A stretch of 64,000 bases of DNA. It comes from Candidatus Spechtbacteria bacterium SB0662_bin_43 (GTDB lineage Bacteria > Patescibacteriota > Minisyncoccia > Spechtbacterales > 2-12-FULL-38-22). Below the pieces are notes generated by a model that saw only the letters and a program-made list of their open reading frames with translations, did not search any database and had not been told where the DNA came from. Made by a program: the position numbers and the translations under genes. Where the stretch lies: contig VXOY01000010.1 in assembly GCA_009839835.1 (NCBI GenBank), positions 4,025 through 68,024 of the forward strand, read 5' to 3'. Each line of letters starts with the position of its first letter. The stretch's first letter is position 1. Below, piece by piece: positions 22,250 to 23,707 of this stretch.

Positions 22250-23707
22250 ATTAGAGTTTGATCCTGGCTCAGGACGAACGCTAGCGGCGTGGATAAGGCA
22301 TGCAAGTCGAGCGGGCATCTTCGGATGTCAGCGGCAAACGGGTTAGTAACGCGTGGGAATCTGCCTCGTACTCGGGAATACGCCATTGAAAGATGGTCTA
22401 ATACCCGATAGTCTCGCAAGGGTAAAGTTACGGCGGTACGAGAGGAGCCTGCGTCCTATCAGCTTGTTGGTGAGGTAATGGCTCACCAAGGCAATGACGG
22501 GTAGGGGGTGTGAGAGCATGAACCCCAACACTGGGACTGAGACACTGCCCAGACACCTACGGGTGGCTGCAGTCGAGAATCTTCCACAATGGACGAAAGT
22601 CTGATGGAGCGACGCCGCGTGCAGGATGAAGGCATTCGTGTTGTAAACTGCTTTTATAGGGGAAGAACTTTTTGTGACTGTACCCTATGAATAAGGGGCC
22701 GCTAATCACGTGCCAGCAGCGGCGGTAATACGTGAGCCCCAAGCGTTGTCCGGAATTACTGGGTGTAAAGGGTCCGTAGGCGGTTGTGTTAGTCGTATGT
22801 TAAATATATGGGCCCAACCCGTATGCTGCGTACGAAACGGCACGACTAGAGGTTGTGAGAGGCGAGTAGAACTCACGGTGTAGGGGTGGAATCCGTTGAT
22901 ATCGTGGGGAATACCGAAGGCGAAGGCAGCTCGCTGGCACAATCCTGACGCTCAGGGACGAAAGCGTGGGTAGCGAATGGGATTAGATACCCCAGTAGTC
23001 CACGCCGTAAATGTTGAATACTAGCCGTGTGGAGTGTCGACCCTCCATGTGGCGAAGCTAACGCGTTAAGTATTCCACCTGGGAAGTACGATCGCAAGAT
23101 TAAAACTCAAAGGAATAGACGGGGACTCGCACAAGCGGTGGAACATGTGGTTTAATTCGTCGGTAAGCGAAGCACCTCACCAGGGCTTGACATTCATACG
23201 ACAGGGTTGAGAAACCAATCCTTCTTTTTAAGCGTATGAACAGGTGTTGCATGGCTGTCGTCAGTTTGTGCCGTGAGGCGCTCCCTTAAGTGGGGTAACA
23301 AACGCAACCCTCGTTGTCTGTTATATGTGTCAGACAAGACTGCCGCGCACAACGCGGAGGAAGGTGGGGATGACGCCAAGTCAGCATGGCCCTTTGATGC
23401 CCTGGGCGACACACGTGTTACAATGGCCAGTACAATGGGTCGCCAAGCTGCGAAGCGGAGCTAATCCCATCAAAGCTGGTCTCAGTTCGGATTGGAGTCT
23501 GAAACTCGACTCCATGAAGTTGGAATCGCTAGTAATCGCAGGTCAGCCACACTGCGGTGAATACGTTCTCGAGTCTTGTACTCACCGCCCATCAAGTCAG
23601 CGAAGTTGGTGGCACCCGAAGTCTCTCGGTCTTCCGAGGGCCCAAGGTGAAACCAATGACGAGGATTAAGTTGTAACAAGGCATCCGTAGCGGAAGCTGT
23701 GGATAGA
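22250..23707 (+). rRNA. 16S ribosomal RNA (divergent; no anti-SD CCUCC tail)
   Basis: Starts agagtttgatcctggctcag. Internal GTGCCAGCAGCGGCGGTAATAC, GGATTAGATACCC, TTGTACTCACCGCCC. Helix 45 ccgtagcggaagctgtgg, then ATAGAAC... instead of ATCACCTCCTT. Confidence 0.9.

Follow-up and report, generated by a model that had tools for sequence, protein, structure and literature searches.

The window analyzed here, a 64,000-nucleotide stretch of contig VXOY01000010.1 from Candidatus Spechtbacteria bacterium SB0662_bin_43, contains a 16S ribosomal RNA (rRNA) gene on its forward strand. This gene is full length, has lost the CCUCC core of the anti-Shine-Dalgarno (anti-SD) sequence from its 3' tail, and forms a self-contained, terminated transcription unit, with purQ as its downstream neighbor outside that unit (Table 1). 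An earlier reading made from the DNA letters alone, called the sequence-only reading below, had proposed an origin in the candidate phyla radiation (CPR). This assignment was borne out: the AtpD and PurQ proteins encoded in the window are 100% identical to those of Candidatus Spechtbacteria bacterium SB0662_bin_43, whose lineage belongs to the Parcubacteria group, and the same sequence stands both on a scaffold in ENA and in a metagenome-assembled genome (MAG) at NCBI. The protein genes flanking the 16S on either side are those of Spechtbacteria, and the 16S is consistent with them: its base-pair signatures 921/1396 and 1405/1496 (E. coli 16S numbering, transferred by alignment, here and below) are shared with Parcubacteria loci.

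The sequence-only reading had placed the 16S gene at 22250-23707 and had proposed an alignment to the bacterial small-subunit (SSU) rRNA model as a check. Aligned to Rfam RF00177, the gene proved to be a full-length 16S, with both boundaries moved outward to 22246-23718; the alignment is non-truncated and its 1424 bits far exceed the gathering score of 50. To count base pairs, three Rfam alignment pieces were joined into a single consensus structure of 462 model pairs, 439 of which are present in the window 16S. Both sides are missing from each of the 23 pairs that are gone, and not a single pair is half-deleted; in other words, the deletions take out both strands of helices. Pairing is canonical in 409 of the 439 present pairs (93%), and among the 30 non-canonical pairs, 7 are non-canonical in the consensus too. 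At 123 pairs, both sides differ from the consensus and pairing is nevertheless kept. The gene is only ~70% identical to E. coli 16S, and G530, C1400, A1408, A1492 and A1493, as well as the GGAA loop of helix 45, are unchanged.

Two regions had been singled out for their departure from near-universal sequences, the 515 region (GTGCCAGCAGCGGCGGTAA, 22710-22728) and the 1390 region (TTGTACTCACCGCCCATCAAG). Both sequences read as the sequence-only reading gave them, but their “mismatches” are compensated base-pair swaps and not erosion. In the 515 region, C526G at 22721 is accompanied by G505C, which turns a G-C pair of the 530-loop pseudoknot into C-G. The pairing of 505-507 with 524-526 is established knowledge; pseudoknots are not annotated in the Rfam SSU model. 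The same pair is U-A in L124 (the closest relative, described below), L123, L053 and the L047 group. In the 1390 region, A1396U at 23582 is matched by U921A in helix 28, a pair given by the Rfam consensus structure and pair list, and G1405A at 23591 is matched by C1496U in the decoding center of helix 44, where pair 1409/1491 has become A-U as well (C1409A with G1491U). The 921/1396 and 1405/1496 swaps are common to all Parcubacteria-type loci compared. In a scan of reference-genome contigs, the A1405-U1496 pair recurred in at least 119 loci, which belong to Iainarchaeia and other DPANN archaea, several CPR lineages, Cardinium and Amoebophilaceae; among the reference matches listed, the best 16S identity to the window was 77-80%, and closer reference genomes may exist. 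G1405 is the target of aminoglycoside-resistance methyltransferases, so that A1405 might alter aminoglycoside sensitivity.

The swaps bear directly on primer binding. The 505/526 swap produces the sole mismatch to 515F, which is internal and central, while the 921/1396 swap produces the single mismatch to 907R and one of the two to 1391R. Primers 1492R, EUB338 and 1100R have three mismatches each, and 27F, 341F, 785R and 806R match perfectly. The claim that standard primers would under-detect this organism is therefore overstated and only partly right: 515F, 1391R and 1492R are affected, and the four perfectly matching primers are not. Judging from these matches, under-detection would depend on which primers are combined: the common V3-V4 pair is expected to work, and the V4 pair 515F/806R would face a single central mismatch. 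Primer-site mismatches in CPR 16S genes can thus be compensated structural swaps rather than decay, which matters for primer design.

Helix 45 is intact, as had been claimed: the Rfam alignment gives nine base pairs around the GGAA tetraloop, and the sole mismatch is the outermost consensus pair, a C x A at 23682/23705. The sequence that follows reads GAACAUUUUUUUG, where the consensus has GAUCACCUCCUUU. A CCUCC core would be expected 6-10 nt past helix 45, but the anti-SD-equivalent positions 23711-23715 are UUUUU, and CCTCC occurs at no site within 23500-24200. The sequence-only reading was thus correct in calling the anti-SD tail absent, and no displaced core lies farther downstream up to 24200. 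The tail corresponds to the canonical ACCUCCUUU with each C changed to U, and it is still a pyrimidine tract. The position of the mature 3' end given in Table 1 is a predicted one.

We then compared the gene with its relatives. The sister strain L134, which comes from a different sample and an independent assembly, carries the same 16S-trailer-purQ block (99.36% identity over 2814 nt, starting at window position 22087) and the same tail. The two sequences differ at 3 positions in the 16S (1473 nt), 0 in the trailer and 10 in purQ (672 nt), so that the per-site divergence of the 16S is about seven-fold below that of the adjacent purQ. The closest relative came from a metagenome scan: the 16S of L124 is 86.6% identical, and its tail (GGAUAGAUCUAAUUUUAAUUG) also has no CCUCC and is unlike that of the window. 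Since the L124 tail is without CCUCC and yet different, the loss predates the split between the two lineages, with the tail having drifted since, and such drift makes it less likely that the new tail acts through its particular sequence. Among the matches listed, most Paceibacterota/Parcubacteria loci are without CCUCC and have unrelated tails (GGAACAAUUCCAUG, GGAUCACUACAUUUU, GGAACAAAAAUAAAA, GGAUCGAUUUAAUUU); the canonical tail is kept in L013 and L042/L123.

Comparison of the flanks with those of L124 also revealed a leader/trailer helix that encloses the 16S gene. Its 33-bp duplex has a predicted energy of -41.1 kcal/mol, against -8.8 +/- 2.9 kcal/mol for 500 shuffles, the best of which reached -20.2. 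L124 has an equivalent helix of different sequence (-45.9 kcal/mol), followed by a hairpin and U-run of its own, and strong leader/trailer duplexes are found in all other relatives compared too. Downstream, the unit is closed by an intrinsic terminator, AAAAAACCCUGAUUUUAUCAGGGUUUUUU, and upstream stands a putative sigma-70-type promoter that falls within the block conserved with the sister strain. The promoter and terminator calls rest on direct reading and folding; a stricter consensus scan for promoters and terminators listed neither. Between promoter and helix lies a boxA-like motif, UGUUCUUUGAAAAUUGAAUAC, which we take to recall the rrn boxA of E. coli and B. subtilis. An identical stretch (19/19) occurs within the 16S leaders of L047 and L098, and versions with 0-2 mismatches precede the 16S of L064, L018, L106, L078 and L134 by 58-184 nt. 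NusB (3552-4046) and RNase III (4058-4756) are encoded in the same window. The trailer inside the helix is highly structured, with a minimum free energy of -143 kcal/mol compared with -84.7 kcal/mol for shuffles (z = -9.6). It matched no Rfam family, as a relaxed-threshold search of 23300-24200 gave only sub-threshold chance hits (rimP leader, microRNAs), and it shows no similarity to the L124 trailer. As a separate observation, the leader contains the 13-mer GTATATTTTGGTG twice, at 22124-22136, where it overlaps the promoter spacer, and at 22169-22181, immediately ahead of the boxA-like motif, where it makes up the 3' arm of a 12-bp hairpin (22154-22180).

No 23S or 5S gene was found in the 64-kb window even at E<=0.01, which covers 22 kb upstream and 40 kb downstream of the 16S, and the sole supported transfer RNA (tRNA) gene is a tRNA-Asn on the opposite strand (46554-46625). 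The earlier statement that no 23S or tRNA follows the 16S thus holds. A 93-nt tRNA-Ile(GAU) called by ARAGORN at 34285-34377 lies within a NUDIX coding sequence (34057-34512) and is probably a false positive, since Rfam finds no tRNA there at E<=0.01. In Patescibacteria, as in certain other clades, rRNA genes are predominantly unlinked, a state defined by a 16S-23S distance above 1500 bp or by the lack of a nearby 23S (Brewer et al. 2019, bioRxiv 10.1101/705046), and the gap in the window far exceeds this distance. What the window adds is evidence at the transcript level: as the 16S has its own terminator and a helix that encloses only this gene, its unlinked state is real in the transcript too. 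The CPR-like rRNA organization proposed earlier is therefore well founded, and the locus shows cleanly how an rRNA gene can have a terminator and a processing helix to itself. Among the relatives, only L053 has a conventional 16S-tRNA-23S-5S operon, and for several of the others no 23S lies within 2-6 kb. In none of the five Spechtbacterales relatives examined does a 16S lie near the atp operon.

Table 1. Positions of the 16S transcription unit, of its altered base pairs and of related start sites in the window.
Feature	Position	Strand	Remarks
Putative sigma-70-type promoter	22119..22147	+	TTGTAT, 17-nt spacer, TATAAT; predicted by direct reading
boxA-like leader motif	22180..22200	+	Recurs in 16S leaders of relatives
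Leader/trailer processing helix, 5' strand	22210..22245	+	Ends exactly at the mature 16S 5' end
16S rRNA gene	22246..23718	+	1473 nt; RF00177, 1424 bits, model 1-1533
530-loop pseudoknot pair 505/526	22700 and 22721	+	G-C to C-G; by E. coli-numbered alignment
Helix 28 pair 921/1396	23117 and 23582	+	U-A to A-U
Helix 44 decoding-center pair 1405/1496	23591/23672	+	To A-U
Helix 44 decoding-center pair 1409/1491	23595/23667	+	To A-U
Helix 45	23683..23704	+	9 bp, 23683-23691 with 23696-23704; GGAA tetraloop 23692-23695
3' tail	23706..23718	+	13 nt
Structured trailer	23719..23995	+	277 nt inside the processing helix; near-perfect long hairpin at 23853-23917
Leader/trailer processing helix, 3' strand	23996..24028	+	Duplex with 22210-22245
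Intrinsic terminator	24032..24060	+	By sequence and fold; 314 nt past the 16S
purQ	24175..24846	+	Pfam GATase_5; ATG 456 nt past the 16S 3' end
AAGGA-preceded starts	8509, 9469, 24175, 47360, 50437, 56498		SD-like spacing

To relate the tail to the genes that are translated in the same organism, we collected the 58 open reading frames (ORFs) of >=100 aa in the window with a simple ORF and first-ATG pipeline. They were compared with 110 ORFs from five Spechtbacterales loci (L126, L127, L128, L130 and L131), and a 50-kb E. coli segment with 42 genes served as a control. Shine-Dalgarno (SD) cores are not enriched upstream of the window ORFs (GGAGG 0/58; GGAG 1/58, with 2.8 expected), and the region from -22 to -3 pairs more weakly with a canonical anti-SD at window starts than at internal-ATG controls. 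The 110 ORFs from the relatives resemble the window, with canonical anti-SD pairing no better than in controls. The same pipeline does detect SD sequences in E. coli, where GGAG precedes 19% of starts vs 1% and pairing energies are -5.40 vs -3.84 kcal/mol (p = 8e-5). The sequence-only observation that the genes have no SD motifs is thereby upheld.

Other signals do mark the starts. A TATAAT-like hexamer stands 4-12 nt upstream of the ATG in 15 of the 58 window genes, for example those starting at 11232 (minus strand), 15598, 33487 and 40082, where 1.8 genes would be expected, and a start-proximal -10 box precedes 17% of the relatives' ORFs vs 4.8%, with 7% in E. coli. Leaderless or near-leaderless messenger RNAs (mRNAs) are classically recognized by a -10 box this close before the ATG. 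In addition, T occupies position -1 at 60-67% of starts in the window and the Spechtbacterales loci, compared with 23-28% in controls and 17% in E. coli, and positions -3/-4 beside it are A-rich, which amounts to an order-wide “UAUG” start context in Spechtbacterales. Among the 63 operon-internal genes (intergenic gaps <=30 nt), T at -1 reaches 73%. Because U(-1) is this strong in operon-internal genes, it is a feature of the mRNA and not only a preference of transcription starts. Extended (quadruplet) pairing between start codon and initiator tRNA, by U(-1):A37, was reportedly described by Esposito and colleagues in 2003. In E. coli, this pairing was demonstrated by compensatory tRNA mutation (Hollerer and Jeschek 2023, PMC10018350). 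The starts studied here share the U directly 5' of the start codon, at 60-73%; the difference is that U(-1) has a modest, modulating role in E. coli, with 17% in our 42-gene control, whereas it would be the dominant genome-wide context here. Leaderless transcription starts and a U(-1):A37 mechanism would both be consistent with these patterns. We put forward, tentatively and with more doubt than confidence, that Spechtbacterales compensate for the loss of SD pairing by start-codon recognition, with a near-obligatory U(-1) that yields four base pairs with A37 of the initiator tRNA, in addition to leaderless mRNAs and tight reinitiation. If true, Spechtbacteria-type initiation would be a bacterial counterpart, on a genome-wide scale, to that in organelles, and across Parcubacteria one could foretell U(-1) usage from the state of the 16S tail. 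U(-1) and start-proximal -10 boxes together form a testable replacement signal, which could improve gene-start prediction in CPR genomes and is in our view the most useful new lead from this locus.

The two rRNA traits themselves are known. According to the main text of Tsurumaki et al. (2022, RNA 28:1041, PMC9297842), an anti-SD motif is present in only 48% of Parcubacteria, and its loss overlaps the group that lacks uL1, in which SD helices are presumably not formed. The window 16S resembles the Parcubacteria genes described there in its group, in the absence of CCUCCU from an otherwise intact 16S and in its shortened helix tips, including that of helix 44. That main text offers a detection rate and the uL1 overlap rather than an analysis of start-site context or transcription units, and we found no mention of Spechtbacteria in it. 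Our literature search on the anti-SD in Patescibacteria and on leaderless genes in CPR returned nothing beyond this paper. The only ribosomal protein encoded in the window is bS16, with no rplK-rplA region. Degenerate tails also occur in Cardinium and Amoebophilaceae, where the sequence likewise diverges right after helix 45 (GGAAUAUCUCUUUU in their loci) and the A1405-U1496 pair is present. These are Bacteroidota, however, an unrelated phylum with an independent loss, and Cardinium still has a partial CUC core, while C is absent from 23711-23715 in the window. Initiation of the Bacteroidota type is SD-independent and likewise involves genes that have no SD motifs and A-rich upstream regions, with a CCUCC that is retained but occluded on the ribosome; the window 16S has lost CCUCC itself. 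Loss of the anti-SD and unlinked rRNA genes are thus already published for Parcubacteria and Patescibacteria, and the window is a good example and not a discovery. Alone, it changes little, being a well-documented case of two described Parcubacteria traits; one of its uses is the direct link between a 16S without an anti-SD and the start contexts found in the same genome and order, with a working positive control.

Taken together, we consider it very likely that Candidatus Spechtbacteria SB0662_bin_43 has here its functional and probably sole 16S gene, which is transcribed alone, has lost its anti-SD and serves genes whose starts are chosen without SD pairing. Transcription would begin at the promoter ~100 nt upstream and run through the boxA-like leader; the leader/trailer helix would close the transcript and presumably be cleaved by the window-encoded RNase III, ahead of the intrinsic terminator. 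As the 16S is transcribed as its own terminated unit, its separation from 23S and 5S would be by design. A 30S subunit whose tail has no CCUCC would be unable to choose starts by SD pairing, and three routes may replace it. Promoter-proximal genes would have mRNAs with a very short leader or none, genes within operons would be translated by tight coupling, and an A/U-rich context would let U(-1) contribute one more base pair, the fourth, with A37 of the initiator tRNA.

Several points weigh against this account. Start sites were assigned by the first-ATG rule and not by experiment. The tail length of 13 nt is assigned by homology and could be shorter or longer. The 64 kb covered leave room in the genome for another 16S gene whose tail is canonical, although one copy is usual in CPR genomes. 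Finally, AAGGA, often as AGAAAGGA, stands 6-9 nt upstream of 6 of the 58 starts, with 0.9 expected, which resembles residual SD use. Five of these six genes are among the eight most GC-rich genes of the window (GC content at third codon positions 52-66% vs a mean of 44%; hypergeometric p = 7e-5), and by this composition they look horizontally acquired, so that the motif may be a relict SD. In two Chloroflexi purQ loci examined, however, AAGGA is missing at the corresponding site. A replacement anti-SD would be another explanation, in which purine-rich leaders such as AGAAAGGA would form A-U and G-U pairs with the U-rich tail or with the pyrimidine-rich trailer segment UUUUUUUCUUUUCUCU (23722-23737). 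The tail has indeed remained a pyrimidine tract with its canonical C's all changed to U, the AAGGA or GAAAGGA motifs stand at SD-like spacing, and their leaders can pair with the tail at -3.5 to -4.4 kcal/mol and with tail plus trailer at -7.7 to -12.8 kcal/mol. Over all starts, however, pairing is no better than in internal-ATG controls or shuffles (p = 0.98 for the tail; p = 0.71 for tail plus trailer), the tail is conserved neither in L124 (GAUCUAAUUUUAA) nor in other Parcubacteria, the pyrimidine stretch is locked in a 14-bp trailer hairpin, and the composition of the AAGGA genes suggests a foreign origin. We therefore regard a replacement anti-SD as very improbable.

Still less probable is a decaying pseudogene, or a non-functional extra copy with an eroded 3' end. 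Such a reading might draw on the missing anti-SD, the mutated “universal” primer sites, the low identity to E. coli and the position of a lone 16S beside a mobile defense island and a gene that looks horizontally acquired (both described below). The mutations at universal sites are compensated, however, and the functional nucleotides are conserved, and for these reasons we reject it. The prevalence of canonical pairs, the many double changes that keep pairing and the two-stranded helix deletions are equally at odds with decay, as are the intact promoter, boxA-like motif, processing helix and terminator, the slower divergence of the 16S than of purQ between sister strains, with just three differences in its whole length, and the same architecture in L124. 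An assembly or binning artifact, for example a chimeric contig in which a foreign rRNA fragment was joined to a CPR genome, deserves consideration because assemblers often break or mis-join at rRNA genes; indeed, the Logan contig of the same run stops inside the 16S, and the adjoining purQ is Chloroflexi-like. Against it, the ENA scaffold, the NCBI MAG and the independent L134 assembly share the 16S-trailer-purQ-atp arrangement, the Parcubacteria signatures of the 16S agree with the flanking Spechtbacteria protein genes, and the leader/trailer helix spans the whole 16S gene. We consider an artifact as improbable as a pseudogene, and keep to a functional, solitary 16S.

The sequence-only reading had placed purQ ~440 nt after the 16S; the order is correct, and the distance is 456 nt. 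With a GC content of 51.8%, compared with a gene mean of 44.4%, purQ stands out from its surroundings. The best non-self homologues of PurQ are 80-83% identical, all named ones are from Chloroflexi (the top-ranked ones are unnamed), and most of the homologues lie on megabase contigs; from these data, purQ looks horizontally acquired, and recently so. It is also an orphan, with no purL or purS nearby, whereas the loci of these homologues have purL directly downstream. Three of the AAGGA-preceded genes, at 8509-9300, 9469-10590 and 50437-52188, have no Pfam match.

Directly upstream of the 16S promoter lies a defense-type island (12871-22081), which encodes a type I restriction HsdR, a Schlafen/AlbA_2 protein, a fused HsdM-HsdS methylase, a hypothetical protein and an AAA_21/AAA_15 ATPase. 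In the sister strain, unrelated DNA that encodes a Fic protein takes the place of the sequence up to window position 22087. Public gene calls place a 99-residue “protein” within the 16S at two loci that correspond to the window gene (L001, 14674-14973; L134, 3196-3495), which is a spurious ORF. The 16S of L124 carries a ~196-nt insertion (1672-1868) between the equivalents of window positions 71 and 85, in the helix 6 region, which is typical of CPR rRNA insertions and absent from the window 16S. Finally, L042 is labeled “uncultured Gammaproteobacteria”, and its 16S has the Parcubacteria signatures 921/1396 and 1405/1496; it also gives BLAST statistics against the window identical to those of the metagenome contig L123, and its signatures suggest that L042 is a mis-binned contig in a public MAG.

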